Below are positions 46,283 to 63,636 of a stretch of DNA of 64,000 bases, in pieces. Position 1 is the stretch's first letter; every line of letters starts with the position of its first letter. Below the pieces are notes generated by a model, which was given only the letters and a program-made list of their open reading frames with translations, ran no database searches and was not told where the DNA came from. This DNA is from an uncultured Alistipes sp. GTDB taxonomy: Bacteria; Bacteroidota; Bacteroidia; Bacteroidales; Muribaculaceae. The DNA lies in the NCBI GenBank assembly GCA_964435935.1, contig CAYTBH010000002.1, positions 175 to 64,174 of the forward strand, written 5' to 3'. Both the position numbers and the translations under genes were made by a program.

Positions 46283-47686
46283 TTAAATGAAATACTGGCC
46301 GTAGGCGCGCAGGCGTGCGCGGAGGTCGGCGGTGTCAACCGCGTGGGTGTCGGGGCGCGACGATTGCGAGGCCATGGCCGCGGCTATGCCGGCGGCTTCG
46401 CCCGTTACCAGGCACGGGGGCATCACGCGCAGCGAGCCGTAGGCCTCTTCGTCGGTCGATATGCAGCGCCCGGCGGTGAGCACATTCCGGAGCCCCTTGG
46501 GAGTGAGGCAGCGATAGGGAATGCCGTGGCTTTCGCCCTTTCCATAGTGCACATGGGGCACCCCGCTCTTGTGAATGTCGATGAAATAGCAGTTTCGGCC
46601 AATCTCGTCGTCAAACGTGCGGCGGGCGCGCCAGTCGTCGCCGGTGAACAGATAGTCGCCAACAATGCGGCGGCTGTCGCGGATGCCGGGGATGATGGCC
46701 GTCTTCACCACAAAGGCGTCGCGGAACACATCGGGGCGGAACTCTTTGAGCATCGCCAGATGCTGGTCGGCAACCCGCCGGCCCTTCATCATCGCTTCCG
46801 ACAACTCGACCGGATCAGTGGTGTTTTTGATTTCGAGATGGTTGGCGTTGAACTGCACCACACCGGGGCCTACCAGGTTGTGGCAGCAATGGGTGTCGAG
46901 CATCGGGTAGCGTCCCGTGCGTTGTGCCTGCACCGATGCGCAATCGGGATTGTGCCCGGCGTGCAGTTCAGGGCCGTTGAGGTATGCTTCGGTGTCGATG
47001 TTAGCCACGGAGAAACACAGGGTGCTCTTCTGGACCACGCCGTCGGAATCGCCCATCATGAACTCAGCCCCGGCCCAGGCACAGAGGTCGCCGTCGCCGG
47101 TGGCATCGACAACAACTTTCGGGCGATAGGCCGTCAGGCCGTCCTTGTTGGCCACGACTACCGCGTCGATTGTGTCGTTGGCCCCCATTTCAACAGCGGC
47201 TACACGCGAGAAAAACAGCACATCGGCTCCGGCCTCGGTCACCATCCTGTCGTACACACCTATGAGGTGCTCGGGGTTGATGGTCACCCAGTCCCATTTC
47301 CAATCGGGCTCGTGGGGCACACCCTTCTTAGCCTCAAGGAAAATCCGCTCGGCAAGCCCGCGGTAAACCACCTTTTCTCCATCGGTGAAGGGGCACCATG
47401 CGGGCACCATACCCGAAGTGCCCAGGCCGCCGAGGTTGCCAGTCGACTCGATAAGCAACGTGCGGGCACCCTCGCGGGCAGCGGCTATGGCAGCGGCGCA
47501 TCCGGCGGGACCACCTCCGGCCACAACGACATCGTATGAATCGTTGACCTTGATTTTGCGGTCTTTGAGTCGGATGGTTTTTTCCGCGCTTTTGTGCCCT
47601 GCAGCCCTCACCCCCTGCGGTAGGGCGGCCATGGCTGCCATAAGGGCGGCGGTTTTTATGAAACCTCTGCGGCTGATTGTTGACAT
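46283..47686 (-). CDS. Tat-exported FAD-dependent oxidoreductase (FAD_oxidored family)
   Basis: SRRGFIK twin-arginine motif, VAGGGPAG, DATGDGD, IPYRCL, AGRCIS. Confidence 0.85.
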   Translation of the reverse strand: MSTISRRGFIKTAALMAAMAALPQGVRAAGHKSAEKTIRLKDRKIKVNDSYDVVVAGGGPAGCAAAIAAAREGARTLLIESTGNLGGLGTSGMVPAWCPFTDGEKVVYRGLAERIFLEAKKGVPHEPDWKWDWVTINPEHLIGVYDRMVTEAGADVLFFSRVAAVEMGANDTIDAVVVANKDGLTAYRPKVVVDATGDGDLCAWAGAEFMMGDSDGVVQKSTLCFSVANIDTEAYLNGPELHAGHNPDCASVQAQRTGRYPMLDTHCCHNLVGPGVVQFNANHLEIKNTTDPVELSEAMMKGRRVADQHLAMLKEFRPDVFRDAFVVKTAIIPGIRDSRRIVGDYLFTGDDWRARRTFDDEIGRNCYFIDIHKSGVPHVHYGKGESHGIPYRCLTPKGLRNVLTAGRCISTDEEAYGSLRVMPPCLVTGEAAGIAAAMASQSSRPDTHAVDTADLRARLRAYGQYFI

Positions 47687-47704: not shown

Positions 47705-49378
47705 TTATTCGATGTAGTTGTCAGTGCCCTCCCATCCGGCGTTCTGGGTGAGCACGCCTTCGGAAAGTTGAATCTCAGTTTGGGGAATTGAGAGGAAACC
47801 GCCGGTTTCAGGACGGAAGGTGACATTCTTGGTGCGGGGCACCTTGCGGTCGTAGATTCGGATGCCGGTCTGGTTTTCGGTAATCAGGTGCTCGTCGTGC
47901 CAGCGAAGCAGGTCGTAATAGCGTTCGCCCTCGAAAGCGAGCTCGAAACGGCGCTCGTTCTTAATGTTTTCGAGCGTGGCGGGGAGCGAGGGGAGATTAA
48001 CACGCGAACGCACGCGGTCGAAATAGGCCTGGGCCTGCGAGCATCCGAGCTCGGCACCCATAAGGAGCACGTCGGAGAATCGGATAAGGATGATATCCTG
48101 CGTGTTGTTGAGCTGGAAGTTGGTCTCCGTCATGCCGTAGAGGGGCACGCTGTAGTTAACAACGCTCTGCTTGGTAGCGTCGGAATAGACATTGATGGGG
48201 CAATGCTTCTTATTGATGTAATAGGTCTCCTCGCTTGCGTTGCCACCCCCTTTGAGGTAGAGGCGCATTTCCGCACGGTCGTTGCAGTCGATCACAGAAC
48301 CTTTCTTGCGAATGTCGGCGTCATCCCAGTCCTCCCAGAGTTTGGGGTTGACGGGAGCGAAACCCCAACCTTGACCGAAGGGGAAGGTGTAGGTGTAATT
48401 GCTCTGTCCGCGAACGCCATAGTAAAGGCACACCTGGTTGCACTTCTGGGAAATCACGTCCCAGGTGCCGAGAGTGGAGTATTTGATTGCCATAACCTCC
48501 TCGATATTGCCGTCGCCGGCCCACTGCAGGCCATTCTCGGCTGTGTAGCCATAATCCTGCACATGGCTGTAAGGCCAAAGGTTGCGGTAGTCCGAAAGGA
48601 GCTCGTGGCCGCTATTGGCGATGCAGTCGTCGACAAACGCCTGAACCTGCTCGCGGGTCACTTCGCCGCCGTCGGCTGTGGGGAGGGCGTTGGTGCGGTA
48701 ATAGCCGGTGTAGAAGAGCCATACGCGGGCAAGGAGCGCCTCGGCGGCCCAGCGGGTCATGCGGCCATTGTCGGCGCGGTCCATCGCGTTGACATTCAGC
48801 TCGGGCATCTTGTTGATTGCCGCCAGCAGATCGCTGGCCATGAATGCGTAGGTTTCAGCCGCCGGAGCCTTGGGGAGATTAACTGCCTCAGGCACGGTTA
48901 CAAGGGGCACTTCGCCAAACATGCGCGAGAGGTCGAAGTAGAACCATGCACGCAGCATGCGGGTTTCGCCCTCGACGCGGTCGCGGTGCTCGGCGCTGTC
49001 CCATTCGATGTCGTCGAGAGCTTTGAGCAGGAAGTTGGCGCGATAGATGCCCATATAGCGGCCTCGCCATGTCCAGCGGAACATGTCTTCGCTCGATTTC
49101 TTGAACTGGTCCATCGCCTTGCACGACTTGTCGGCCTGGTCGCCGCCGCCGAAGCAGTTGTCGCTCATGATTTCGGAGATGAAATATGTGAATCCGAGGG
49201 GCTCGGCACGGCCGAGCATCGAGTAAACACCCACGAGGAGCTGGTCGGCATCGTCGGCAGATTTCGGATAATTTGAGGTGTCCTTCTTGGTGAGGTTCTC
49301 GGTGTCGAGAAAGTCCTCGCAACCTGTGAGCCACGCGAAGGCCAGCAATATGGTGAATATGGAAAGAAGCTTTTTCAT
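47705..49378 (-). CDS. susD: SusD/RagB family lipoprotein
   Basis: LTGC lipobox, LRAWFYFDL, RFSDVLL, ERRFELAFEGERYYDL, QNAGW. Confidence 0.95.
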   Translation of the reverse strand: MKKLLSIFTILLAFAWLTGCEDFLDTENLTKKDTSNYPKSADDADQLLVGVYSMLGRAEPLGFTYFISEIMSDNCFGGGDQADKSCKAMDQFKKSSEDMFRWTWRGRYMGIYRANFLLKALDDIEWDSAEHRDRVEGETRMLRAWFYFDLSRMFGEVPLVTVPEAVNLPKAPAAETYAFMASDLLAAINKMPELNVNAMDRADNGRMTRWAAEALLARVWLFYTGYYRTNALPTADGGEVTREQVQAFVDDCIANSGHELLSDYRNLWPYSHVQDYGYTAENGLQWAGDGNIEEVMAIKYSTLGTWDVISQKCNQVCLYYGVRGQSNYTYTFPFGQGWGFAPVNPKLWEDWDDADIRKKGSVIDCNDRAEMRLYLKGGGNASEETYYINKKHCPINVYSDATKQSVVNYSVPLYGMTETNFQLNNTQDIILIRFSDVLLMGAELGCSQAQAYFDRVRSRVNLPSLPATLENIKNERRFELAFEGERYYDLLRWHDEHLITENQTGIRIYDRKVPRTKNVTFRPETGGFLSIPQTEIQLSEGVLTQNAGWEGTDNYIE

Positions 49379-49424: not shown

Positions 49425-52400
49425 TCAATATTCGATGCTGAGGCCAACCATGTAGGAGCGCGAGCCGGGATAGTAGCCCAGGTCGATTCCCTGAGCCCAC
49501 GAGTCGCCGCCACCATATCCGATTTCGGGGTCCATGCCCGAATACTTTGTGAAAGTGAAGGGGTTCTGCACCGCTCCGTAGACGCGCAGCTTTCTCAGCG
49601 GCAGTTTCGGGAAGAGGTGTTTGAAGTCATAGCCCAGAGTGATGTTGGTGATTCGGAAGTAGTCGCCATCTTCAATGTAGAGGTCGCTGACATACTGCCA
49701 GTTGATTGCCGAGCCGTTCATCGAGGGGAGGCGGTTGGAAGTTCCTTCGCCGTGCCAGCGGTTGAGCATGTCGGTGGTGTAGTTGTCGTAGGGCTTGTCG
49801 GTGCCGCTGCGGTATGAGCGGGCAATCTGGTTGCCGGCCACGCCATAGCTGTTCAGTGCGAAATCAAAGCCCTTGAATCCCAGCATGATGTTGATGCCGT
49901 AGGTGAGGTCGGGATAGGGATTACCGATCGAGGTGCGGTCCTCGGTGTCGATGTTGCCCGAGTTGTTGCGGTCCACGAAAATCACGTCGCCGGGTTTCGC
50001 GTCAGGCATAATGGGCTTCCCGGTGGCGGGGCTGATGTAGTTGTCGATCTGCTCCTGGTTCTGGAAGATGCCGGCTGTCTGGTAGCCGTAGAAGTAACCG
50101 AGCGGGTGCCCCTCCTCGGCGCGGTAGAACGAGGTGGTGTTCTGCGCCAGGATGCCGGCGTTGCCCTCGATGAGGCCGTTGCCGTTGGCGATGCGGAGCA
50201 CTTCGTTGCGGTTGTGGGCCAGGTTGGCGGTGATGCTGTAGGTGAAGTCGCCCACACGGTCGTTCCACGAAACGGAGAGCTCGACACCGGTGTTCTTGAT
50301 GTCGCCGCCGTTCATATAGGGAGCGCCGGTGCCCCAAAGTCCGAGTGCGGTGGGCTGCACGAGCCAGTCGAGCGTTTTCTTTTCATACCAGTCGAATGTA
50401 ACACCCAGGCGTGTGCCGAGGAAACGGGCGTCGAAACCGATGTCGGTCTGGCGCGAGGTTTCCCATTTCAAATCGGGGTTGCTCATGATGTCGGGGTAAG
50501 CGCCGATTGTAGGCTGGCTCTTGTTGTCGCCGAAGTAATACCAGGCGGCATTGGTGGCGTTGCCGAAGGCGATTGTCGAGAGATAGCGGAATGTGGGGAT
50601 GTTGCAGTTGCCGTTCTCACCCCACGAAGCGCGGATTTTGAACATGTCGAGCCATGTCGACTGCGATTCCATGAATTTTTCTGCCGCGAGGTTCCAACCC
50701 ACCGAGAACGAGGGGAAGTAGCCCCAGCGGTGACCGCGGGCGAAGTTCGAGGATCCGTCGGCACGCATGGTTACGGAGGCCATATAGCGGCGGTCGTAGT
50801 CATAGTTCACGCGGCCGAACCAGCTGACGAGCTGGCCGCGGCTCCAGGGAGCGCCCGAGAGGGTTGTCGACCCGGAAGCGATGCTCTTCACGTTGCTGAG
50901 CCAAGCGTACTCAAAGCTGTCGAACTCGCTGTCGCGGTTGCTGCCGTTGAGGTCCTGGCCGATGCCCCACTTTTCGATGGAGTTACCTGCCAGCACGTTG
51001 AGGTGGTGGCCGCTGACGGTGAAGTCATAGCTGAGGGTGTTGTCCCAGCTCCACTGCAGGCCGTTGCCCGAGCCCTGACCCACGCGGTCGGTCTTTGAAT
51101 ATAGCTTTTCGTTGATTTGGTATTTGGGCACATACTCGCGCGAAGTCCAGCCGTTGTAGGCAAAGCCGAAAGTGCTCTTGAAAGTGAGGCCCTTGATGGG
51201 TTCGAGCACGAGGTAGATGTTGCCGCGGGCATTGTAATTGCGGCTCTGCGAGAATGAGCGCAGATAGTACATCTCGGCCACAGGGTTAGTTTCGTCAGTG
51301 TCAATCAGCACCGGCCAAGCATACTTTTCAGGGTTCTCCATCAGCGGGAAGAGGGGCGAGCAGCAGAGCGCGTTGCGCACATCGTTCCAATACATGTTGC
51401 CGGTGCCCTGGGTCATACCGCGGGAGTTAACATAGGCCATGGTGAGGGTCTGGCCGAGTTTGAGGACGTCGCGGGTTTTGTGCTTAACGACGGTGTGCTC
51501 CGAGTTGAAGCGGAGGGTGTAGCGCTCGTAGCGCTGGGTCACGTCGTCGGCCTTAACGCCGATGGTCGGGGTTTCGGAGGTGTAGCTCACACCCATGGAG
51601 TAGGTCGAGCGCTCGCTACCACCGTCGAGGCCGAAGTTGTAGCCCTGCTTGAAACCGTCGTGGGTCTGAATCTCGTCGAGCCAGTTGGTGCCGGTGAACT
51701 CGCCGCTCTGAATCTTATCCCAGAGAGGCACTGCGGCTGCGAAGTCGGCATCAGTGAGGCCGGCCTCCTTCATCAGCTCAACATACTGCTGGGCGTTGAG
51801 GGGGGTAACGGTCTTGGGGATGCTCTGCCAACCGAGATACATATTAAAGTGCGCGTTGATGCGGTCCTTGGTTCCCTTCTTAGTGGTGACAAGAATCACA
51901 CCATTGGCTGCGCGGGCGCCATAGATGGCAGCCGAAGCGGCGTCCTTCAGCACGTCGATGCTCTCGATGTCGTTAGGGTCGAGCAGGTTGAGGTCGCCCC
52001 CGCTCACACCGTCAATCACCACCAGCGGCGAAGAGTTATAAATGGTGCCGAGGCCGCGGATGTTGACCTTGAAACCATCGCCGGCCTTGCCTGAATTCTT
52101 CACGATGTTCACGCCGGGAGCCTGGCTTTGCAGAGCGCCCATGGCCGACATGGTATTCTGGCGGGCAATGTCGTCGCCCTTGACCTGGAGGGTCGCGCCG
52201 GTGACGAGTTTCTTCTGCTGCACGCCGTAACCGATGGCCACGATTTCGTCGAGCACATTCTCGTCGTTTTCGAGGGTTATGTCAATTGTGTTGCGGCCAT
52301 GCACCTTCACAATGGCAGTGCGGTAGCCGAGGAAGCTCGCCTTGATGCTCCCCTTTTCGGGCACTGTGAGCACGAACTTGCCGTCGACGTCGGTTGAGGT

Positions 52401-52592
52401 TCCGTTGGAGGGGTTTCCGTCCTGTGTCACTGTCGCACCGGGGAGGGGCATCCCGTCGCCGGTCACGACGCCGCTCACCTTTATATCCGCGGCGAGCGCC
52501 GATAACGAAACTGCCGGGAGCAGCATGGCGAGCCAAAGACGGCGTGCCATTCCGTGATACCGGCTCATGGCTGATTTAAGAATCTTTTTCAT
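49425..52592 (-). CDS. susC: SusC/RagA TonB-dependent transporter
   Basis: DIESIDVLKDAASAAIYGARAANGVILVTTK, NPDLKWE, C-terminal barrel strand. Confidence 0.97.
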   Translation of the reverse strand: MKKILKSAMSRYHGMARRLWLAMLLPAVSLSALAADIKVSGVVTGDGMPLPGATVTQDGNPSNGTSTDVDGKFVLTVPEKGSIKASFLGYRTAIVKVHGRNTIDITLENDENVLDEIVAIGYGVQQKKLVTGATLQVKGDDIARQNTMSAMGALQSQAPGVNIVKNSGKAGDGFKVNIRGLGTIYNSSPLVVIDGVSGGDLNLLDPNDIESIDVLKDAASAAIYGARAANGVILVTTKKGTKDRINAHFNMYLGWQSIPKTVTPLNAQQYVELMKEAGLTDADFAAAVPLWDKIQSGEFTGTNWLDEIQTHDGFKQGYNFGLDGGSERSTYSMGVSYTSETPTIGVKADDVTQRYERYTLRFNSEHTVVKHKTRDVLKLGQTLTMAYVNSRGMTQGTGNMYWNDVRNALCCSPLFPLMENPEKYAWPVLIDTDETNPVAEMYYLRSFSQSRNYNARGNIYLVLEPIKGLTFKSTFGFAYNGWTSREYVPKYQINEKLYSKTDRVGQGSGNGLQWSWDNTLSYDFTVSGHHLNVLAGNSIEKWGIGQDLNGSNRDSEFDSFEYAWLSNVKSIASGSTTLSGAPWSRGQLVSWFGRVNYDYDRRYMASVTMRADGSSNFARGHRWGYFPSFSVGWNLAAEKFMESQSTWLDMFKIRASWGENGNCNIPTFRYLSTIAFGNATNAAWYYFGDNKSQPTIGAYPDIMSNPDLKWETSRQTDIGFDARFLGTRLGVTFDWYEKKTLDWLVQPTALGLWGTGAPYMNGGDIKNTGVELSVSWNDRVGDFTYSITANLAHNRNEVLRIANGNGLIEGNAGILAQNTTSFYRAEEGHPLGYFYGYQTAGIFQNQEQIDNYISPATGKPIMPDAKPGDVIFVDRNNSGNIDTEDRTSIGNPYPDLTYGINIMLGFKGFDFALNSYGVAGNQIARSYRSGTDKPYDNYTTDMLNRWHGEGTSNRLPSMNGSAINWQYVSDLYIEDGDYFRITNITLGYDFKHLFPKLPLRKLRVYGAVQNPFTFTKYSGMDPEIGYGGGDSWAQGIDLGYYPGSRSYMVGLSIEY

Positions 52593-52901: not shown

Positions 52902-55900
52902 ATGAAGAAAATTACGCCTGCCATCTGCGCGTTAGTCCTTGCGGCAATGTCGCTGGCAGCCCACGCGGCCAACAACCCAGCCACTGTCGAGCGCCCGGCA
53001 ACCCGCGCCGAGGCCGCCCCGGTGACGGGCAAACTGTTTGCCGGCTCAAACTCACACATTAATAAAATATGCCAGGACCACCTGGGTTATATATGGCTCG
53101 CCACAGACTATGGCCTGGCGCGCTTCGACGGCTCGGAGACAATCGTGTTCACCCGCACCGCGGAGGCTGGCTCGCTGCTGAGCAACACCGTGCTTTCGGT
53201 TATGGAGGATAGCGAGAGCAACCTGTGGGTCGGGTCGACCGACGGCATCCAGCGGTTCGACCGCTCGACCCGCACCTTCATCACTCCGCGACTGAGCTAC
53301 CCCAACGTGCCCGACTTCAGCTACGTCAACTCCATCATCGAGGACCGCAAGGGGAACATCTGGTTCACCACCTCGCGCTCGGGGGCGGTGTGCATCCGCA
53401 AGGGGGAGGAGGAGCCCGTGTGCTACATGACCACCAACTCGCCCATCTGCTCCAACAAGACAACCGAACTGTTCGAGGATAGCTTCGGCAACATCTGGAT
53501 CGGCTCGATGGATGCCGGCATCTCCATTTTCAACAGCTCGACGAACACCATGACTCACCTGAGCCATGACCCCGGCGACCCCTCGACCCTCTCGGGCAAC
53601 ATGATTTTCACGATAGCGCAGACCAACGACGGGCGCCTCTTCATCGGCTCGCTCGACGGGGGCATCGACTCATACGACTACCGCACAAACCGGGTGACGC
53701 GCGACGCGGTGAAGGTCAACGGCAATGTGTACATTATGCGTAACTCCCCCACGGAGAACGCGATGTACGTTGGCACCGACGGCAACGGCGTCAAGAAAGT
53801 CAACCTCGCCACCGGCACCGCGTCAAACGTTGAAATCGCCCTCAAGGAGTTTGACATGTCAAAGGCGAAAATCCACGACATACTCACCGACATGCAGGGG
53901 AACCTCTGGTTCGTGGCCTATCAGAAAGGGGCGGTGATGGTTCCCGCCGACACCGACGATTCAGTGACCACTTACACCTACAACCCCTTCTATCCGGCAC
54001 TGAACATCGGCACCGAGCCGGTGTTGTGCGCCCTCCAAAGCCGCGACGGGGCCCTGTGGATCGGCACAGACGGCGACGGCGTTTACCGCTCGCCGGCACC
54101 GGGACGGCCTTTCGAGCATCTTGCCGGGGGAGCCACCGAGGCGAGCGCCATCCTGACCATTTTCCAGGACCGGGCCGGCAACATCTGGGCCGGCAACTAC
54201 CTCAACGGCCTCTCGCGCTACGACCCGGCCTCGAGGAGCTTCAGCACCGTCACAATCCACATTCCCGGCACCCCCGGAGGGCGCGTCAAGGAGGTGAACA
54301 CCATCGCCGAGGCACCCGACGGCAACCTGTGGATCGGCACCAACGGCAACGGCGTGTGCGTCTACAACCCCGCGACCGGGGCTACCCGGTTCTACACCCA
54401 CGACCCGGCCCATCCTGCCGGCTCGCAACTCCCCGGCAACGCCATCCATGCGATTCTCTTCGACGGCGATGGCAAGGTGTGGATCGGCACCAGCGACGCC
54501 GGGCTTACGCGCTTCGACCCAGCCACCGAGACCTTCGAGCACCTATCCACGTCGAATATGCGCCTGAGCAACAACTGCGTCTTCGCCCTCTGCCAGGACG
54601 CATCGGGAGCCATTTGGGCGGCTACCCGCATGGGACTCAACCGCATACACAACGGACGCACCCAGATTTTCAACGAGAGCCACGGGCTGATAAACAACAC
54701 CGTCTACGGTATAGTGCCCGACGGCGACGGCACTCTGTGGCTCAGCACCGGTGCCGGAGTGTCGGCGCTCAACATTTCCACCCTCGAGTTTGACAACTCC
54801 AAGGTGCCCGACATGGTGATTTGCAAGGAATTCAAGCGCGGCTCGGCCTGCCGGGGCACCGACGGGCGGGTTTATTTCGGAGGTGTCGGCGGCATGTTCT
54901 CGTTCCGCCCGACGGCGGCACGCCATCCCCGCGAGCTGCTGCGCCTGGCTCTTAACTCTTTGGAAGTCATGAATAATGGCGACAACGCCACGGGCGTGGC
55001 CGCCTCGGCTCCCGGCCAAGAGCCCGACATACTCAGCATTCCGCTCGATGGCAAGGAGAGCGTGAAACTCACCTACGACCAAAACAGCTTCACGGTGTCG
55101 TTTGGCGCCGTCGAGTTCCTCACTCCCGACCGAGTTGTCTACTCGGTGATGCTCGAGGGGCACGACGCCGGATGGATCACCCTGCCACCGGGGGTGCGCA
55201 CCGCCACATGGTCGAGCGTGCCTCCGGGCGACTACACCCTGCGCCTCAAAGCATCAATCGGCGATTTCCACCCCGCCCAGGCATCGATGGGGCTCTCGGT
55301 GATTCCGCCGATGTATCTCACCTGGTGGGCAAAGGTTCTCTACACGCTCTTTGTCATCGCCATCATCTTCCTTCTTTACCGCATGGCCCGTTGGCGCATG
55401 CGCGAAGCCGAACGCCGTCACCGTCAGCTTGTGCAAGCACAGACTGCCGAACAGAAGCTGCAGTTCTTCACCGACATCTCCCACGAAATCCGCACCCCGC
55501 TCACCATGATACTCTCCCCGCTGGAGACCCTCAGGGAGAAGACCCGCGACAAGCAGGCCCTACACACCATCGACGTGATGAGCCACAACGGGCGGCGCAT
55601 CCTCCGACTCATCGACCAGATTATGGACCTGCGGCGCATCGACAACCATCGTATGTCGCTGTCGGTGAGCCCCGTGCCGCTGCGGGGATTCATCGAGGAC
55701 CTCGCGGGCGCATTTGAGGACGCCGCTTCGCGCTGCGATATCAAGTTCAGCGTCGACATCGACCCCTCGCTCCCCGACGAAGTGCCCATGGATGCCGACA
55801 AGATGGACAAAGTGGTGTTCAACGTGCTTTCAAACGCCTTCAAGTTCACCCCCGCCGGAGGTCGCATCGAGCTATCGGTGAAGCGCCAGGGCGACAGCCT

Positions 55901-57089
55901 GGCCATACGCGTCTCCGACACCGGCCCAGGAATTCCGCCCGAGAGTCGGGAGAATGTGTTCAACCGCTTCTTCCGCGTGGGCGAGGCCTCGGCAGCCGCT
56001 CCGGGCACCGGCATCGGCCTGCATCTCGCACGCGAGCTCTCCAACCTCCACCATGGCTCGATTGCCATCGAGAGCAGTTCGCCGGAGGGGACCACTTTCC
56101 TGATTCTCATTCCATTGACCGACGAAGCCTACTCCGACGACGAGCGTACGAAGCCAGCCGACGCGGCCGACGGCAACGCTTCGGGCGGCAACACCCCGAG
56201 CGTGCCCCGCGACCATCAGGTTGACCTGCCGCCCGACAACCGCCCCCTACCCTCTCCCGACGACCGCGCCAAACGCCACGCCACCGTCCTCATAATCGAG
56301 GACGACCCCTCGATTCTCGAATATCTCGCCCGCGAACTCGCAGATCACTACAATGTGCTCACCGCCCCCGACGGCACCACTGGCCTCGAAACCGCCCTGA
56401 CGCGCCACCCCGACTTAATCATCACCGACGTGATGATGGAGGGCCTTGACGGACTGGAACTATGCCGCAAAATCCGCGCCAACGAGTCAACCTGCGAGAT
56501 TCCCGTGGTCATGCTCACCGCCAAGGTCACCCAGGCGCAACGCAACGAGGGGATTCTCGCCGGAGCCGACGCCTACATCACCAAGCCGTTCAACATCGCC
56601 CACCTGCACAACCGGGTGAACATGCTCATCCAGCAACGACGCGTGATGAAGGAGAAATACTCCGGGGCCACACCCGTGAACTCCGAGGTCGCCTCCATCA
56701 AGTCAAACGACGAACGCATGCTCGAGCGAGTGCGCAAGGTTGTGCTCGACCAGCTCGCCAACCCCGACCTCTCCGTGGAACTCATAGCCCGCGAAATCGG
56801 CGTGAGCCGCTCACACCTGCAACGCCGCCTGAAAGTGTCGGCCAACATCAACCCCAGCGAGTACATAAAGCGCGAGCGCATGCGCCACGCCGCCATGCTC
56901 CTCTCGACAAAGGATGTGGCCGTTTCGGAGGTGGCCTACGCCACAGGATTCTCAACCCTGTCGCACTTCTCGACCTGCTTCCGCGAGCACTTCGGCATGT
57001 CGCCCACGCGCTACGCGGCGCTCCACGGCAAGGGGTCGGCGGGCGCGTCGGGAGGCGACGCTGCCGACTCCTCTGAGCCTCAAATTTAA
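52902..57089 (+). CDS. Hybrid two-component system sensor kinase / response regulator (AraC output)
   Basis: Beta-propeller repeats, Y_Y_Y domain, TM, FFTDISHEIRTPL, GTGIGL, DLIITDVMM receiver, C-terminal AraC HTH. Confidence 0.97.
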   Translation: MKKITPAICALVLAAMSLAAHAANNPATVERPATRAEAAPVTGKLFAGSNSHINKICQDHLGYIWLATDYGLARFDGSETIVFTRTAEAGSLLSNTVLSVMEDSESNLWVGSTDGIQRFDRSTRTFITPRLSYPNVPDFSYVNSIIEDRKGNIWFTTSRSGAVCIRKGEEEPVCYMTTNSPICSNKTTELFEDSFGNIWIGSMDAGISIFNSSTNTMTHLSHDPGDPSTLSGNMIFTIAQTNDGRLFIGSLDGGIDSYDYRTNRVTRDAVKVNGNVYIMRNSPTENAMYVGTDGNGVKKVNLATGTASNVEIALKEFDMSKAKIHDILTDMQGNLWFVAYQKGAVMVPADTDDSVTTYTYNPFYPALNIGTEPVLCALQSRDGALWIGTDGDGVYRSPAPGRPFEHLAGGATEASAILTIFQDRAGNIWAGNYLNGLSRYDPASRSFSTVTIHIPGTPGGRVKEVNTIAEAPDGNLWIGTNGNGVCVYNPATGATRFYTHDPAHPAGSQLPGNAIHAILFDGDGKVWIGTSDAGLTRFDPATETFEHLSTSNMRLSNNCVFALCQDASGAIWAATRMGLNRIHNGRTQIFNESHGLINNTVYGIVPDGDGTLWLSTGAGVSALNISTLEFDNSKVPDMVICKEFKRGSACRGTDGRVYFGGVGGMFSFRPTAARHPRELLRLALNSLEVMNNGDNATGVAASAPGQEPDILSIPLDGKESVKLTYDQNSFTVSFGAVEFLTPDRVVYSVMLEGHDAGWITLPPGVRTATWSSVPPGDYTLRLKASIGDFHPAQASMGLSVIPPMYLTWWAKVLYTLFVIAIIFLLYRMARWRMREAERRHRQLVQAQTAEQKLQFFTDISHEIRTPLTMILSPLETLREKTRDKQALHTIDVMSHNGRRILRLIDQIMDLRRIDNHRMSLSVSPVPLRGFIEDLAGAFEDAASRCDIKFSVDIDPSLPDEVPMDADKMDKVVFNVLSNAFKFTPAGGRIELSVKRQGDSLAIRVSDTGPGIPPESRENVFNRFFRVGEASAAAPGTGIGLHLARELSNLHHGSIAIESSSPEGTTFLILIPLTDEAYSDDERTKPADAADGNASGGNTPSVPRDHQVDLPPDNRPLPSPDDRAKRHATVLIIEDDPSILEYLARELADHYNVLTAPDGTTGLETALTRHPDLIITDVMMEGLDGLELCRKIRANESTCEIPVVMLTAKVTQAQRNEGILAGADAYITKPFNIAHLHNRVNMLIQQRRVMKEKYSGATPVNSEVASIKSNDERMLERVRKVVLDQLANPDLSVELIAREIGVSRSHLQRRLKVSANINPSEYIKRERMRHAAMLLSTKDVAVSEVAYATGFSTLSHFSTCFREHFGMSPTRYAALHGKGSAGASGGDAADSSEPQI

Positions 57090-57302: not shown

Positions 57303-58145
57303 ATGAAGAAAACAGCGCAATTAGTCATAGCCGCCGTAGCCCTGGGTGGAATCGCAGTGACAGCGTTCACCGCGATGGCCCGCAACGAGGGTGCCGAGGA
57401 GGAGGAAATCATCATTCCCGAAGGATACTCGCGCCTGGTGTTCCACGACGAGTTTGACACCGACGGGCAACCCGACACCACGCGGTGGAGCTACGAGCAG
57501 GGCTACCTCCGCAACGGCGAGCTACAATATTATACACCCGGGCAGAACGCCTTCTGCCGCGACGGCAACCTCGTGATCGAGGCCCGCGCCGACAGCGCCG
57601 TGATCAACGGCGAGGTGTGCCCCATCACCTCGGCGAGCCTCACCACTAAGGACCGCTCGGCTTGGAAGTATGGCTACGTCGAGGTGCGCGCCAAGCTCCC
57701 CTCGTCGCTCGGCACATGGCCCGCCATCTGGATGATGCCCCAGGAGCAGAGCTACGGACGCTGGCCCCGCTCGGGCGAAATCGACATCCTCGAGCATGTG
57801 GGCTATAACCCCGAAAACATCCACTTCTCGGCCCACACCGAGCGCTACAACCACATGCTCGGCACCCAGCGCACCCATGTGGAGAAAGCGCCCGAAGCCG
57901 TGGGGCAGTTCCACATCTACGGCCTGAAATGGACCCCCGACCGCCTCACCTGGCTCTACGACGGCAAGGAGCTCTACTCCATCGACCGCGAGCCCGACAG
58001 CGACTGGACCACATGGCCCTTCGACATCGACTATTACCTCATCCTCAACCTCGCATTCGGCGGCGGATGGGGCGGCGCTGAGGGCGTTGACATCGCCTCG
58101 CTCCCCCAACGCTACGAAATCGACTACGTCCGCGTATTCCAGTAA
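57303..58145 (+). CDS. GH16 beta-1,3(4)-glucanase (laminarinase type)
   Basis: FHDEFD, NGELQYY, WPAIWMMP, GEIDILE (ExDxxE), IDYVRVFQ; Sec signal with no lipobox. Confidence 0.93.
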   Translation: MKKTAQLVIAAVALGGIAVTAFTAMARNEGAEEEEIIIPEGYSRLVFHDEFDTDGQPDTTRWSYEQGYLRNGELQYYTPGQNAFCRDGNLVIEARADSAVINGEVCPITSASLTTKDRSAWKYGYVEVRAKLPSSLGTWPAIWMMPQEQSYGRWPRSGEIDILEHVGYNPENIHFSAHTERYNHMLGTQRTHVEKAPEAVGQFHIYGLKWTPDRLTWLYDGKELYSIDREPDSDWTTWPFDIDYYLILNLAFGGGWGGAEGVDIASLPQRYEIDYVRVFQ

Positions 58146-58194: not shown

Positions 58195-58671
58195 ATGAAA
58201 AAGATATTTGCCATCCTCACACTCTGCGCCGCGTCGCTTGCCGCAAACGCGCAGGGCCCGGTGATGAACTTCGCCCGCACCGTCTTCACCTCCGACGGCC
58301 TTCCCAAGGCCAACCTCAACGTAGCAGTGCGCGTCATCATCCACGAGGGGAGCGCCGACGGCCCCAACGTCTTCGCCGAGGAGCACCAGCTCACCACCAC
58401 CCCCGCCGGCGTGGCCTACGTCGCCGTTGGCTCGCAAAACGCCAATGTGACGCTCGACATGCTCGACTGGAGCAACAAGACATACTTCATGGAATCGGCC
58501 GTTGACTGCGGCCAGGGATTCGAGAACACCGTTTGCCAGCAGATTATGAGCGTGCCCCGCGCCATCCACGCCGCCTCGGCTTCGGCCCTGCACCTCACCT
58601 CCCCCTCGGGTAAGCGTTTCAGCGTGACGATCAACGACAACGGCGAAATATCCACAACCCCCATCCAGTGA
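58195..58671 (+). CDS. Small secreted protein made only of an 'SVPxA-HA' fibre-like domain
   Basis: Signal peptide; homologous along its length to the N-terminal domain of 59139-60359. Confidence 0.75.
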   Translation: MKKIFAILTLCAASLAANAQGPVMNFARTVFTSDGLPKANLNVAVRVIIHEGSADGPNVFAEEHQLTTTPAGVAYVAVGSQNANVTLDMLDWSNKTYFMESAVDCGQGFENTVCQQIMSVPRAIHAASASALHLTSPSGKRFSVTINDNGEISTTPIQ

Positions 58672-58679
58672 TCCAAGCC

Positions 58680-59120
58680 ATGAGAATACTCACAGCAACA
58701 CTACTGGCACTCGCCGCCGGAGGCGCCTCGGCCCAGGGATTCGTGCCCATGGGGGGCTACGACAGCAACTGCCACTTCGTCCTCGAGCCGTCGGTTGCCG
58801 GAGCCGTGAAAACCGAAAACGCCATCCTCAGCCACGGCGCCATACCCGCCCTGTCGCTCTACACAAGCGCCATCGAGAGTGTTTACGACGCTAAAGAGTC
58901 CCTCACTGCGACCGTGGCCGCCGACGGCGCGTCGGTGACTGTGGCCGGCCTCACATCGGCTGCCAGCTACGAAATCTTTGCCGCCGACGGCATCCTCATG
59001 GCAGCCGGCACGGTGACTCCCGGAGCATCCATCGCCCTTCCCGGCACAGCGGCGGCATATATCCTCCGCGTCTCCCAAGCCGGCAAGCAGCCCCAGGCAT
59101 TCCGATTACTGAAAAAATAA
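58680..59120 (+). CDS. Small T9SS type-A sorting domain protein
   Basis: Signal peptide, ~45-aa mature region, then SAIESV...YEIFAADG...YILRV...FRLLKK CTD; start ATG 58680. Confidence 0.7.
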   Translation: MRILTATLLALAAGGASAQGFVPMGGYDSNCHFVLEPSVAGAVKTENAILSHGAIPALSLYTSAIESVYDAKESLTATVAADGASVTVAGLTSAASYEIFAADGILMAAGTVTPGASIALPGTAAAYILRVSQAGKQPQAFRLLKK

Positions 59121-59138
59121 AGTCTCAACCCACAAGCA

Positions 59139-60359
59139 ATGAAAAAGCATTTCGTATCCGCGATTCTCGCCATAGCCGCCATGGCCGTGGCCAACGCCGA
59201 GCCTGTGTTCTACGAGGCTTCACTCACCGACATCTACGGCACCCCCTCGGTATCGGAAGCTGTCAACATCCGATTCACCCTCACCGATGCCGACGGGAAT
59301 GTGCTTTATGCCGAAAACAACGATGCCGTGACCGACAGCAACGGCCATATCTTCACCGCCATCGGCACCGGCACCCCCACCCAGGGTAGCTTCACCACCG
59401 AGGCGTGGGAGGCAGCCCAAGGCCTCGGCGTGACGATAGTCCGCGCCGACGGGTCTGAAATCGCCGACAACGTGTCGCTTGCCTACTCACCCTCGGCAGC
59501 CCACGCCGACGTGGCCTCGGCCCTGGTGTCGCCCGTCAAGGACGGCGGACGCTATGTGCTGGCCGTCGACGACGAGGGCCATCTCTCGACCACCCGCGAG
59601 GATTTCGACATAATCCCCGTGCCCGACGGCTTCAACCGCCTCATCTTCCACGACGAATTCTCAGGCTCGGGCCTCCCCGACCCCGCCATCTGGAGCTACG
59701 AGGAGGGCTATGTGCGCAACGGCGAGCTGCAATACTACACCAAGGCGCGCCTCGACAACGTGGAGGTGGCCGACGGTATGCTGCACCTGCGCTGCCTCAA
59801 CGACCGCAACTATCCCGACCCGGTGAAGGGGGGCATGTGTGAATACACCTCGGGCAGCGTCACCACCCAGAACACCGTGAAATTCACCTACGGACGCGTG
59901 GACATCCGCGCCAAGCTTTCCGACGTGAAGGGCACCTGGCCCGGCTTCTGGCTCATGCCCAACGACAGCCACTACGGCCCCTGGCCGCGCTCGGGCGAAA
60001 TCGACATCATGGAGCAGGTGGGCTACAATCCCTACGTCGTCTACTTCACAGCCCACACTTCGCAGCAGAATGGCGAAAACAACAAGCATCACTACAGCAT
60101 GCGCGTGCCCACCTGCTGCAGCGACTTCCACGTCTACTCGCTCGAGTGGAGCGAAAACAAACTCACATGGCTCGTCGACGGCAAGCGCGGCTTCACCGTG
60201 GTGAAGAGCTCGCCGCTATGGACAGGCTGGCCCTTCGACAAGGACTTCTACCTGATTCTCGACCTCGCCTGGGGCGGCGGTTGGGGCGGCCGCGAGGGCA
60301 TCGACGCTTCAAGGCTGCCAACCGAGGTGCTCATCGACTATGTGCGCATCTTCCAGTAA
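59139..60359 (+). CDS. GH16 glucanase with N-terminal 'SVPxA-HA' fibre-like domain
   Basis: Signal peptide, ~135-aa accessory domain, then FHDEF, NGELQYY, GEIDIME, IDYVRIFQ. Confidence 0.9.
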   Translation: MKKHFVSAILAIAAMAVANAEPVFYEASLTDIYGTPSVSEAVNIRFTLTDADGNVLYAENNDAVTDSNGHIFTAIGTGTPTQGSFTTEAWEAAQGLGVTIVRADGSEIADNVSLAYSPSAAHADVASALVSPVKDGGRYVLAVDDEGHLSTTREDFDIIPVPDGFNRLIFHDEFSGSGLPDPAIWSYEEGYVRNGELQYYTKARLDNVEVADGMLHLRCLNDRNYPDPVKGGMCEYTSGSVTTQNTVKFTYGRVDIRAKLSDVKGTWPGFWLMPNDSHYGPWPRSGEIDIMEQVGYNPYVVYFTAHTSQQNGENNKHHYSMRVPTCCSDFHVYSLEWSENKLTWLVDGKRGFTVVKSSPLWTGWPFDKDFYLILDLAWGGGWGGREGIDASRLPTEVLIDYVRIFQ

Positions 60360-60426: not shown

Positions 60427-61899
60427 ATGAATAAAAAACAGTTACTCTCTCTGTCAGTAGCAGCCATCCTTGGCGCGTCACAGGCTTTCGCAGTCACCGA
60501 ATACTGGGTGGCCACCAACGGTAGTGACGAGAACCCCGGCACCGAAGCCAAACCCTTCGCCACGCCCGAAATGGCAATCATGTGTGTCCGCGACAACGAC
60601 GAGACCATTATCCACCTCCAGAAAGACGCCACCTTCCTCCTGGCCGGCCAGCTGAACCTCGACAAGAACAAAATCTGCACTGTGGAAGGCGACAACACCA
60701 CCTTCAAAGGTGCCGAGAAGCCCGGTTACCAGGGTGGCGAGGCTGTGCGCCTGTTCCGCGCTGCCGACAACTCCAAGGTAACAGTGCGCGGCATCAACTT
60801 CGTCAATGGCCGCCAGGTTGAATACGTTCTCGGTGGCGCTATTTACTTCGCAGGCGAAGAACTTATTGTTGACAAGTGCCGCTTCATCGACAACGAGGCC
60901 GGTTCTTGCGGCGCCGCCATCGGTTCGCGCGGCCACATCGTGCGCGTAACCAACTCCTACTTCGAGCACAACTACACCATCGGCGGCGGCTCGCGCGGTC
61001 CCGCCATCATGCAGCGCGGCCCCGAGACTCTCGACGGCGAGCTCTACGTTGACAACTGCACCTTCTACAAGAACTCGCAGGACCAGGGCGGCCAGGGCAC
61101 CTGCATCGGCATCTACGACCCCTCCTCGCAGCCGGGCGTGAACTTCGCCGGTTGCAAAAAGCTGGTTGTTACCAACTCCACTTTCGTTGAAAACACCTCG
61201 AAGGACAACTACCAGGCCTGCATCGACATCTCCGACTCTTCGGACTGCGAAACCATCCTTGCCAATAACACCTTCTATAACAACGACGGCATTCTGCGCC
61301 TCTACTTCCAGCTCGAGCCGGTTTACATGTTCAACAACTTCGCATACTGCAACCGCGCCTGCGTGCTCTCCGAGCTTTCGATCGCCGACGCCGACCGCAC
61401 CCCGGTTATCGCCCGCAACAACATCTTCTACGGCGCTGAACGCAGCGTGAACGAGAACATGGACGACCCCGACTTCAACGCCAACGCCGCTGCCGCCCAC
61501 AACACCCTCGGCCTCTGCAAGGACGCCACGATGACCGCCCTCGGTGTTAGCACCACCCTCGGCACCCGCGACCAGGGCTTCGTGCCTTTCCTCCCCATTC
61601 TCCGCGACAACTCCCCGCTGGTTAACGCCGGCATCGAGGATTCTGCCGAATGGACTGGCACCAACATGATTCCCACCTCCGACTGCCGCGGCTACCTTAA
61701 CAACGGCGGCAAGGATGTCGGCGCCTACGAATACGAAGGCATCGATCCCAACGGGGAAGCAGCCGTAGCAGTGATAGAGGCTGAGAACGCCAACGCTCCC
61801 GTTGAATTCTACAACCTCCAGGGCATGCGCGTCAACAACCCCGCCAACGGCATCTTCATCCGTCGCCAGGGCAACAAGGCCACCAAAGTACGCCTCTAA
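60427..61899 (+). CDS. Right-handed parallel beta-helix protein with choice-of-anchor Q-like end and T9SS-type tail
   Basis: YWVATNGSDENPGT..KPFAT, GGAIY and F..N repeats, DCRG...DVGAYEY, FYNLQGMRV tail. Confidence 0.75.
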   Translation: MNKKQLLSLSVAAILGASQAFAVTEYWVATNGSDENPGTEAKPFATPEMAIMCVRDNDETIIHLQKDATFLLAGQLNLDKNKICTVEGDNTTFKGAEKPGYQGGEAVRLFRAADNSKVTVRGINFVNGRQVEYVLGGAIYFAGEELIVDKCRFIDNEAGSCGAAIGSRGHIVRVTNSYFEHNYTIGGGSRGPAIMQRGPETLDGELYVDNCTFYKNSQDQGGQGTCIGIYDPSSQPGVNFAGCKKLVVTNSTFVENTSKDNYQACIDISDSSDCETILANNTFYNNDGILRLYFQLEPVYMFNNFAYCNRACVLSELSIADADRTPVIARNNIFYGAERSVNENMDDPDFNANAAAAHNTLGLCKDATMTALGVSTTLGTRDQGFVPFLPILRDNSPLVNAGIEDSAEWTGTNMIPTSDCRGYLNNGGKDVGAYEYEGIDPNGEAAVAVIEAENANAPVEFYNLQGMRVNNPANGIFIRRQGNKATKVRL

Positions 61900-61929
61900 G
61901 CAAACCACCACACTTTGAAATCCAATAGC

Positions 61930-63636
61930 ATGAAAAGATTCACAATATTGGCCACGACTTTCGCTATGGCAGCTTCGGCTGCCATAGCCGAGAGCGTGAC
62001 CATCAACCACGAAACCGCCGGCAACCTCAAGGCTGAGCTCGATGCCGCGATTGCCGCATCGGATGTCCTCTCGTCGATGGAGGACATCACCGACCTGACT
62101 ATTGAAGGCGACGCGCAGCTCAATGCCAATGACTTTGCGGCCATTCGTGCCAACCTGCGTCCCTCGTTGTTATACCTCGACCTCTCCAATGCCAAATTCG
62201 CAAACAACAAGCTCCCCGGTGGCGACTACGACAAGCAGGGTATACTCCAAACAATGAATGTCAAGGAAGTAAAACTTCCTGAAACACTCACCGGCCTGTC
62301 GGGTGGCGCATTCTACATGTGCAAATCGCTCGAAAAGGTCAATCTGCCCGACGGCATCCATAGCATTAACCAATATTGTTTCTCGGGCTGCTCAAATTTG
62401 AAACTCGAAGCGCTCCCCCCATATCTTACCTCAATTTCGGCCGACGCTTTCCGCGGTTGCAGCTCCCTGGAACTGACAGAACTTCCTGAGACTATCAAGA
62501 CTATCGGTGGCGATGCTTTCAATGATGATGAAAAGGACGCTGTTAAGCTCCCATTGAGCGGCGTAGCATTCACGAAACTTCCCCGCGACCTCACGACACT
62601 CGGCGAGCGAGCCTTCCGACGCACAAGCTGCACTTTCTCAGAATGGCCCGAACACCTCACAGCTCTCCCAGCATCGGTTTTCTCGGCGACCCATGTCACA
62701 TTCACGTCATTGTCGCCCAACATCACATCTGTTGCCTCTTATGCGTTCCAGAGTGTGAAAACAATGACCGAATTCACCATCACCGACCAGGCCGGCCTTT
62801 GGACGAAGATTCCCGACGGATGTTTCTTTGTGCAGACCGACGACGCTAAACGCGTGTTCATCTGCCGCGCCCCCTCTGCCCCGAAAGCAACCGTGAATGT
62901 TGGCTCCGGCGCTTGGACTGGTTCTTTCAGCCAGGTGGCCAAGAACCCCAACACCACCTTCCGAGTGCTCGCATCGGCAATGGAGAGCTTCCAGAACACC
63001 GCTCCCTACAACACAATGAACATCGAGGCGCTGACCACCGAGGTTCCTGCGCCGATTATCGACATGCCCGCCGGCCATGACACATCAGGCGTTAGCGTGA
63101 AGTTCGTGGTTAACGACGTGGAACACGACGGCTTCGGCAATGTGCTCGAAGGTGAAGGCAAATTTGTTGTCAGCTTCAACGACGAGGCCCACGACTGGCT
63201 CCACGTTGAGGAGATTCGCTATGCCGCTCCCTCGACCTACAGCGCTGTGCGTGCAGCAGTCTATGCCGCTGACGATGAAACCGAGGAGCCCGCTGAGGAA
63301 ACCGACCCCGACCAGCTCTACCGCGTGAGCAACGTTTCGGAAAACCTGAAGAAGACCATCGAGGTGCCCGTAACCGTGACGCCCGATATGAAGCCCCTGC
63401 AGGTCAAGGTGTCGATGGCCGACGTGATTACCGGCGTCAACGTGGTGAATATCCCCGACGCTGTGGTTACCCGCAACGGCGACATCGTGAACCTCACCGT
63501 TCCCGGCGCAAGCCTCTACAACATGGCAGGCCGCATGGTTCTCTCGACCGACTCCAACACCCTCGACCTTGGCGGCATTCCCGCGGGAGTTTATGTGCTC
63601 CGCGCCGGCAAAAAGACCGTCAAGATTCTGAAATAA
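61930..63636 (+). CDS. BspA-like leucine-rich repeat surface protein with T9SS-type tail
   Basis: LP..L..I...AF..C..L repeats; tail LYNMAGRMV...GVYVLR...VKILK; start ATG 61930. Confidence 0.8.
   Translation: MKRFTILATTFAMAASAAIAESVTINHETAGNLKAELDAAIAASDVLSSMEDITDLTIEGDAQLNANDFAAIRANLRPSLLYLDLSNAKFANNKLPGGDYDKQGILQTMNVKEVKLPETLTGLSGGAFYMCKSLEKVNLPDGIHSINQYCFSGCSNLKLEALPPYLTSISADAFRGCSSLELTELPETIKTIGGDAFNDDEKDAVKLPLSGVAFTKLPRDLTTLGERAFRRTSCTFSEWPEHLTALPASVFSATHVTFTSLSPNITSVASYAFQSVKTMTEFTITDQAGLWTKIPDGCFFVQTDDAKRVFICRAPSAPKATVNVGSGAWTGSFSQVAKNPNTTFRVLASAMESFQNTAPYNTMNIEALTTEVPAPIIDMPAGHDTSGVSVKFVVNDVEHDGFGNVLEGEGKFVVSFNDEAHDWLHVEEIRYAAPSTYSAVRAAVYAADDETEEPAEETDPDQLYRVSNVSENLKKTIEVPVTVTPDMKPLQVKVSMADVITGVNVVNIPDAVVTRNGDIVNLTVPGASLYNMAGRMVLSTDSNTLDLGGIPAGVYVLRAGKKTVKILK

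Follow-up and report, generated by a model that had tools for sequence, protein, structure and literature searches.

A 64,000-nucleotide stretch of DNA from an uncultured Alistipes sp. of the Muribaculaceae (contig CAYTBH010000002.1 of assembly GCA_964435935.1; the whole stretch is hereafter called the window) encodes, within a polysaccharide utilization locus (PUL), three consecutive genes, designated A, B and C, that appear to form a surface-display module. In this module the small protein B on balance probably supplies, in trans, both a type IX secretion system (T9SS) export signal and the surface anchor for A and for the glycoside hydrolase family 16 (GH16) protein C. In this reading C itself is no lipoprotein and bears no T9SS tag. 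The observations behind this proposal are the homology of a domain shared by A and C, the linkage of genes encoding this domain to genes for small proteins with a T9SS C-terminal domain (CTD), the presence of T9SS genes in the same genome and an interface model of A with B that passes its mark. The original prediction, which was made from the DNA letters alone, had pictured B as an exported anchor that captures oligomers of A and C; the core of this picture withstood those of its proposed refutations that lend themselves to computation, with the domain identity, the gene linkage and the A/B model in its favor. The likeness of the domain to phage-fiber motifs drew no support from PHROGs, and the CTD of the window B is too diverged to pass curated thresholds.

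All three genes were recovered as plus-strand open reading frames (ORFs) with the boundaries originally given to them (Table 1). A and C share one domain: they are 25% identical over the whole of A in a BLASTP alignment that takes in both signal peptides (E=9e-8) and that displays the common motifs previously listed for the pair, and a hidden Markov model built from A-type proteins alone matches residues 1-152 of C (E=8e-20). The domain starts at residues 21-24, directly behind the signal peptide, and the shared unit comprises a β-sandwich of about 100 residues plus a helix-hairpin. In the AlphaFold monomer models the sandwich shows an identical order of six strands in A (24-29, 42-51, 58-67, 73-78, 97-104 and 109-116) and C (23-28, 41-49, 55-64, 70-75, 95-101 and 107-113), followed in both by a low-confidence helix and hairpin; the AlphaFold2 model of A has a predicted local distance difference test score (pLDDT) of 82.8. 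The short helix after the sandwich is VPRAIHAASASAL in A and SPSAAHADVASAL in C, and the β-hairpin after the helix is SPSGKRFSVTINDNGEISTT in A and DGGRYVLAVDDEGHLSTT in C. The C-terminal part of C is a GH16 domain, as had been claimed for it (residues 168-405; PF00722, 77.4 bits), with the catalytic ExDxxE motif present as EIDIME at residue 287 and a confidently modeled GH16 fold beginning at residue 168. No Pfam family matched A, B or the base domain of C, and neither profile scans nor structure models revealed a β-helix, collagen or S74 region in A and C.

The absence of recognizable sorting elements from A and C was likewise upheld: A ends in the hairpin and C in the GH16 domain, without a C-terminal sorting domain, and neither has a conserved lipobox. 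A lipoprotein assignment for A was considered and rejected, as the sole cysteine of its signal peptide ('LTLC') is not conserved in homologs and the -1 residue is leucine. A has 44 homologs of approximately 158 aa, and the named matches among its homologs assign the source organism to the Muribaculaceae. Proteins of about 160 aa with an A-like architecture also occur elsewhere in the base-domain family (P0049, P0051, P0056 and P0082) and in the related locus L067, so that A represents a conserved type, as opposed to a remnant. It could form homotrimers that lack a tip or mix with C.

The original prediction had likened the shared domain to the 'YQAVVR...QLLSVPYA' domain, and profile searches proved this identity right. 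A profile built from A proteins and the N-termini of three C proteins (A1), run against 1.84 billion cluster representatives, recovered 26,608 of these at E<=1e-3, with the domain at residues 1-135; a limit of E<=1e-10 leaves 19,873. The proteins among the 150 best family matches range from 150 to 1200 aa. Nearly all of them have the start of the match in their first 15 residues, and a few with longer N-termini have it at residues 21-33. The family consensus is F.YQAVVRD..G..L.N..V....SILQGS..G..VY.ETH..TTN...IDW....YFL......QLLSVPYALYA; distant homologs of A display 'M.YQ..V.D..G' at the mature N-terminus, and an invariant E, G, G and W are common to A, C and the family, with the SVP.A position also conserved. 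Sampling of 107 representatives recovered the FISUMP and collagen-like cargo that the original prediction names for this domain (FISUMP in 22, collagen in two and Lcl_C in two), together with Peptidase_S74 in eight, the YadA head in four, GH16 in two, SusF_SusE in two, and FGE-sulfatase and C1q in one each; five further instances carry an arabinanase-like cargo (NF049889), one of them with a Pfam GH43 match. Much of this swappable C-terminal cargo (S74, the YadA head, collagen and C1q) is obligately trimeric. One protein of 916 aa (P0045) possesses six consecutive base-domain matches and a FlgD_ig C-terminus, indicating that the domain can also be an internal repeat.

The NCBIfam model for the N-terminal region of the mosaic adhesive trimer (MAT) fibers of Bdellovibrio (NF053851, Bdello_MAT_N) matches 106 of the same 107 representatives at E<=1e-3, one of which exceeds its cut-off. 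C matches this model with 29.5 bits (E=5.6e-7), below the cut-off of 60 bits, and A gives no match to it. Going by these profile comparisons, the shared domain is a distant relative of the MAT fiber base domain that lies outside the curated subfamily. Caulton et al. 2024 (PMC10769870) wrote that the MAT base domain 'would presumably tightly bind a surface element', which was still unnamed, and a review of September 2026 still named no partner for it. A search of PDB sequences with the A1 profile returned nothing significant, the best hit falling on the hairpin at the C-terminus of a chain of 99 aa (9j1k, E=0.035), and comparison of the A model with the PDB by Foldseek and exhaustive VIA-align yielded only generic Ig-like sandwiches, the best with a Z of 7.8, within the background of the tool. 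Among these background-level fold matches are Ig domains of GH2 enzymes, secretin pilotins, the CTD of mirolase (8qb1, Z 7.2) and the CTD of PorU (6za2, Z 6.4); the matches to T9SS CTDs and pilotins are inseparable from generic Ig-like similarity. The supposed resemblance of the domain to phage-fiber motifs was not recovered, with no PHROGs match for A, the base domain of C, B or three family members. In line with the original prediction, the domain is in all likelihood not a plain carbohydrate-binding module (CBM): it is a generic Ig-like sandwich, lacks a standout solved relative and mostly bears cargo unrelated to carbohydrates.

The gene linkage anticipated for this domain is seen both across the phylum and within individual genomes. 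In a sample of genomes at least 90% complete the base domain is present in 65 of 300 Bacteroidota, and in 22 of 29 loci taken from that sample a B-like ORF of 141-192 aa ends 2-20 bp before the domain gene. A 53-column profile restricted to the N-terminal motif of B, so that CTDs were not counted, was run on five complete genomes and gave 14 matches, of which 11 stand directly beside a domain gene, two within 4 kb of one and one elsewhere; one of the 11 adjacent matches is downstream, and the other ten are upstream at about 290 bp, a distance that a CTD would fill. The GH16-type loci examined comprise those with an A protein at 43-60% identity, those of eight Muribaculaceae genomes and that of L067, in which C is 35% identical. 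The order GH16a, A, B, C, β-helix protein and leucine-rich-repeat protein, beside a hybrid two-component sensor/regulator (HTCS) and SusC, is kept in every GH16-type locus examined. The same three-gene order recurs in four other Muribaculaceae genera (L016, L018, L020 and L021) with a different cargo: the first gene encodes the base domain followed by about 120 aa of an unmatched fold, the second a B-like protein whose Por_Secre_tail passes, and the third the base domain fused to a CotH kinase, which matches PF08757 with E of about 1e-33 to 1e-35. For gut Bacteroidota, a CotH kinase that is secreted and possibly displayed at the surface is a puzzling find. In six further Muribaculaceae loci (L022, L023, L027, L028, L029 and L032) a base-domain protein of about 200 aa is followed by a small CTD protein of some 150 aa. 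The mature part of these small proteins is unrelated to B (e.g. '...VVTTLDGNKQ...SYPL..V..W.Y'), and they may constitute a second type of small T9SS partner.

Protein B was read from the ATG at 58680, given that its orthologs begin with MRIL. The architecture first proposed for it, a signal peptide, a short mature segment and a CTD-like tail, holds, with a mature segment of approximately 55 residues in place of the earlier estimate of approximately 45; the tail of the window copy by itself falls below the curated T9SS thresholds. The N-terminal motif reads GFVPMGGYDSNCHFVLEPSV...ILSHG in the window (also given as GFVPMGGYDSNCHFVLEPSVAG...ILSHG) and takes the form GILPASGFVSNNNVSLVFSAGETIVGEF or SGG...GSVSYSVGQ..Y....G....GVQQPYEI elsewhere in the phylum. 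B evolves fast, with word-based searches yielding only four close relatives, and its motif and CTD are joined by a short linker of poor conservation. An alignment of 19 B sequences was built from ORFs in the same position of related loci and is colinear from end to end; nine of the 19 pass PF18962 (best E=1.2e-14), and since these are colinear homologs of it, the B of the window can be considered a diverged member of the T9SS type-A CTD family. The members that pass include GH16-type copies with the canonical AYPNPV start of such domains, and the separate copy beside the 35%-identical C in L067 passes PF18962 as well. The genome that contains the window (an assembly of 2.4 Mb, 82% complete with 2% contamination reported) encodes SprA (2669 bits, two copies), PorV (496 bits) and PorU (892 bits, two copies), all above curated cut-offs. 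The pairs of SprA-like (C40:961-8166 and C132:4-4797) and PorU-like genes (C46:10084-13395 and C58:7906-11259) could mean two sets of T9SS translocon and sortase, or alternatively contamination or a mixture of strains.

Modeling of three copies of A (residues 20-158) with one copy of B (residues 20-80), using separate alignments for the two proteins and the base domain of A, predicted the confident A/B interface that the original prediction called for. The interaction prediction score from aligned errors (ipSAE) is 0.72 (0.76, 0.68 and 0.72 in the individual runs), whereas none of the three controls exceeds 0.02, and the runs share at least 49% of contacts. The confident interface is formed by residues 20-39 of B with residues 24-31 and 111-122 of all three copies of A. 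In the model, B 31-35 (CHFVL) runs antiparallel to A 26-29, i.e. the 'YQAVVRD' strand, and B 20-26 (GFVPMGG) contacts A 111-122 (NTVCQQIMSVPR, the 'QLLSVPYA' segment) of the three copies, all of which touch B near residues 115-122. As the motif of B and the two most conserved motifs of the domain are the very parts that form the modeled contact, their conservation finds an explanation; further, the model is no memory of a solved complex, for none exists for the base domain. The verdict of the tool is that the model lends support to binding. The contacts also suggest that the N-terminus of B would lie buried in the trimer at its distal end, on the side of the stalk, with the chain descending along one subunit, and that the C-terminal linker of B would exit at the membrane-proximal end, where an anchor to lipopolysaccharide (LPS) would need it.

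A possible course of events can be assembled around this contact. The endo-glucanase C, which would face outward, and its paralog A begin with what is probably a MAT-type fiber base domain. In the periplasm, the mature N-terminal peptide of B (GFVPMGG...CHFVLEP) would pair as an added antiparallel strand with strand 1 of the base domain, and the tip of the peptide would tuck against the 'QQIMSVPR' (QLLSVPYA) segments at the junction of the three subunits. The type-A CTD of B could then take the complex through PorV/SprA, after which PorU would cut the CTD and the new C-terminus of B could be linked to anionic LPS, as in known type-A cargo. The outcome would be trimers with GH16 heads, together with tip-less A or mixed trimers, displayed on a short stalk above SusCD; the GH16a protein encoded upstream of A, which is devoid of the base domain, could act elsewhere. 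In this scheme we infer the trimer state, the co-export, the CTD cleavage, the LPS anchoring and the role of A. Trimerization of A or C is suggested by the family to which their base domain belongs.

A number of points weigh against this scheme, and they bear in different measure on the alternatives to it. GH16 enzymes are normally monomers. The mark used for the ipSAE is reached by 58 of 80 solved complexes and by two of 110 mismatched pairs, counts that hold only roughly here since three copies with their own alignments differ from the calibration of the tool; the pLDDT of the partner in the complex is low (44-47), which leaves the fold of B itself uncertain, and Gly53 (HG), an invariant residue of B, is not part of the confident interface. 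The CTD of B in the window reaches only 12.7 bits with TIGR04183, where the cut-off is 23, and no Pfam model matches it. A B-motif gene is clustered with only 13 of the 26 domain genes in the five complete genomes; one array of five base-domain genes in tandem, encoding proteins of 582-930 aa (G466:C1:5338712-5348155), has no B-motif gene detected nearby, and a subfamily of about 200-aa proteins in Muribaculaceae ('IGYQVSLLD') has no B neighbor. Lastly, Bdellovibrio possesses the base domain and is not known to have a T9SS, so that a CTD is not a universal solution and another partner must exist in that organism. The display of MAT fibers by Bdellovibrio, the half of the domain genes in the five complete genomes with no detectable B neighbor and the weak CTD of the window B would all be in keeping with the base domain anchoring A and C alone or via another partner, such as LPS or an outer-membrane protein, with B being an independent, co-regulated T9SS peptide. 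We nevertheless regard this as quite unlikely: genes with the B motif hardly ever stand apart from domain genes, the adjacency persists despite the fast evolution of B, the interface model passes with controls at 0.02, and A and C have no evident way of their own across the outer membrane.

Unlikely as well is an arrangement in which B binds the base domain but merely escorts A/C trimers through the T9SS and is then shed, leaving no permanent anchor, with the enzyme either released to the medium or held by something else. This would fit the same linkage and interface evidence, many Flavobacterium type-A CTD cargoes are released and not anchored to LPS, and the short and poorly conserved linker of B would be in keeping with it; on the other hand, tight binding of a surface element by the MAT base domain is what Caulton et al. 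expect. An improbable alternative is that the shared domain is an Ig-like spacer or a CBM, that A and C act in the periplasm on imported oligosaccharides and that the gene order is incidental. It could draw on the generic β-sandwich fold, which is most like the Ig domains of GH2 enzymes, on a weak similarity to Big_1 and on the lack of a recognized surface signal in A or C. Nevertheless, the domain occupies a strictly N-terminal position on more than 26,000 cluster representatives whose cargo is mostly of the adhesin or fiber kind and not carbohydrate-active enzymes, a CotH kinase occurs as cargo in the same triad, the best-conserved motifs coincide with the interface predicted for B, away from a sugar-binding face, and a GH16a without the domain is already present and could serve inside the cell. 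Export and anchoring of A and C by B in trans remains the reading that we favor.

The PUL, which is read as a β-glucan utilization locus, fills the 3' quarter of the window, and its assignment follows from the ORF list and Pfam matches, which reveal a SusC/SusD pair, an HTCS, a GH3, two GH16 proteins and a second GH3. The minus strand carries the genes for SusC, SusD, an oxidoreductase dependent on flavin adenine dinucleotide (FAD) with a twin-arginine translocation (Tat) signal, GH3, a DUF5040/CBM96 protein and an esterase; the plus-strand row is headed by the HTCS and continues with GH16a, A, B, C, D, E and the start of the second GH3. From GH16a to E the genes are separated by 8-67 bp, with 8 bp between A and B and 18 bp between B and C, and no terminator-like site was found on the plus strand between them.

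Table 1. Genes of the locus and their parts (nucleotide positions are those of the window; other numbers are residues)
Feature	Position	Strand	Description
SusD	47705-49378	-	SusD-like_3/SusD_RagB match
SusC	49425-52592	-	1055-aa ORF with TonB-receptor features
HTCS	52902-57089	+	Hybrid two-component sensor/regulator; 1395-aa ORF
GH16a	57303-58145	+	PF00722, 76.9 bits; EIDILE at residue 159
A	58195-58671	+	Signal peptide 1-19/20; base domain ~21-120 (58255-58554); helix and β-hairpin 121-158; no cargo
B	58680-59120	+	Signal peptide 1-19 (ASA|QG); N-terminal motif 20-~62 (58737-58865); linker; diverged type-A CTD 76-146 (58905-59117)
C	59139-60359	+	Signal peptide; base domain 21-114 (59199-59480); helix and hairpin 115-155; linker; GH16 ~165-406 (59631-60356)
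D	60427-61899	+	490-aa right-handed β-helix protein, PF13229; short CTD-like tail
E	61915-63636	+	BspA-type leucine-rich-repeat protein, PF13306, 110.7 bits; T9SS type-A CTD

The syntenic homologs clarify several of these neighbors: those of SusC carry CarbopepD_reg_2, Plug and TonB_dep_Rec domains, and those of the HTCS combine Reg_prop/Y_Y_Y, HisKA, HATPase_c, Response_reg and HTH_AraC domains. GH16a is 46% identical to the GH16 part of C (BLASTP E=6e-79) and is a plain GH16 protein with no base domain, no CTD and no cysteine in its signal region. Its sorting seems to vary among relatives, with the homolog in L005 showing a lipobox-like YVGC at odds with the cysteine-free window copy. D, which is kept downstream of the A-B-C triad in syntenic loci, has in its last 45 or so residues a resemblance to a shortened CTD that is matched by no CTD model, including the profile of the B CTD; its homologs in L067 show weak or faint matches to PF18962 in addition to matches to the B-CTD profile. 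The CTD of E passes TIGR04183 with 23.7 bits against the cut-off of 23. CTDs seem to be generally diverged in this genus with its high content of guanine and cytosine. The Tat-signal FAD-dependent oxidoreductase (PF12831, 347 bits; 46283-47686), which lies between susD and the GH3 gene, is unusual for a β-glucan locus.

The proposed module recalls several established systems without being identical to any. To the MAT fibers of Bdellovibrio bacteriovorus (PMC10769870, NF053851) it is linked by profile homology of the base domain, which is likewise without a solved structural homolog there. It differs from them in having no long shaft, with only one helix-hairpin unit (38 residues in A), in bearing a glycoside hydrolase (C) or nothing (A) in place of an adhesive tip, and in the location of its genes in a PUL beside a T9SS-tagged partner. 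Canonical T9SS type-A cargo, such as the cellulases of 'Ca. Paraporphyromonas polyenzymogenes' (PMC5831590) and the gingipain RgpB, uses the same PF18962/TIGR04183-type sorting domain with SprA, PorV and PorU, and the likely outcome is the same, an enzyme at the cell surface; here, however, the CTD resides on a separate polypeptide of about 146 aa, off the enzyme. The cohesin-dockerin pairing of scaffoldins offers a functional analogy alone, in that a small anchored module catches enzymes via a shared non-catalytic domain. A, B and C have no cohesin or dockerin match in Pfam, and the two systems are without relation in sequence or fold, the present one being set at a Gram-negative outer membrane and predicted to work by strand addition of a peptide. 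Surface lipoprotein glycoside hydrolases of the SusG type in Bacteroides (GH16 laminarinases and mixed-linkage glucanases) have the same presumed role as endo-enzymes beside SusC/D under an HTCS. In contrast to these, C lacks both a lipobox and a lipoprotein export signal and would be held non-covalently by a product of the T9SS. Finally, 'hitch-hiker' co-export by the Tat pathway shares with this proposal the idea of a sorting signal that acts in trans for a folded oligomer, although the membrane, the machine and the signal are different and there is no homology.

No description of a trans-acting T9SS adaptor, of piggyback secretion, of CTD-less cargo or of T9SS/GH16 systems in Muribaculaceae was found in the literature searched, and a search of a review of T9SS effectors (PMC10202324) for CTD-less or co-secreted cargo gave no hit. 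What is specific to the window is the enzyme cargo, with the module placed inside a PUL, the conserved order of three genes, the first of them without cargo, and an interface model that passes. By tentative extension, which we would not yet rank as probable, B-type proteins could be a general partner of the MAT base domain in T9SS-bearing bacteria, giving CTD-less trimers an export signal and an LPS anchor, and Muribaculaceae would have recruited this arrangement for enzymes (GH16 and CotH kinase) in addition to adhesins. Bacteroidota would then have a third route for bringing glycoside hydrolases to their surface, besides lipoproteins and cargo with a CTD in cis.

The importance of these proposals depends on confirmation at the bench. 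Cargo of the T9SS is defined by a C-terminal domain in cis; if B acts as proposed, T9SS secretome prediction would change, as thousands of tag-less fiber and enzyme genes would count as cargo. The pairing of a peptide of 20 residues with a domain of 100 residues by strand addition could also become a modular tag for surface display in Bacteroidota. An answer would be suggested to the question raised by the MAT study, namely what the base domain holds on to. Muribaculaceae are dominant, yet little studied, in the mouse and human gut, and the module would explain how they bring an endo-glucanase to the exterior with no lipid anchor on it.

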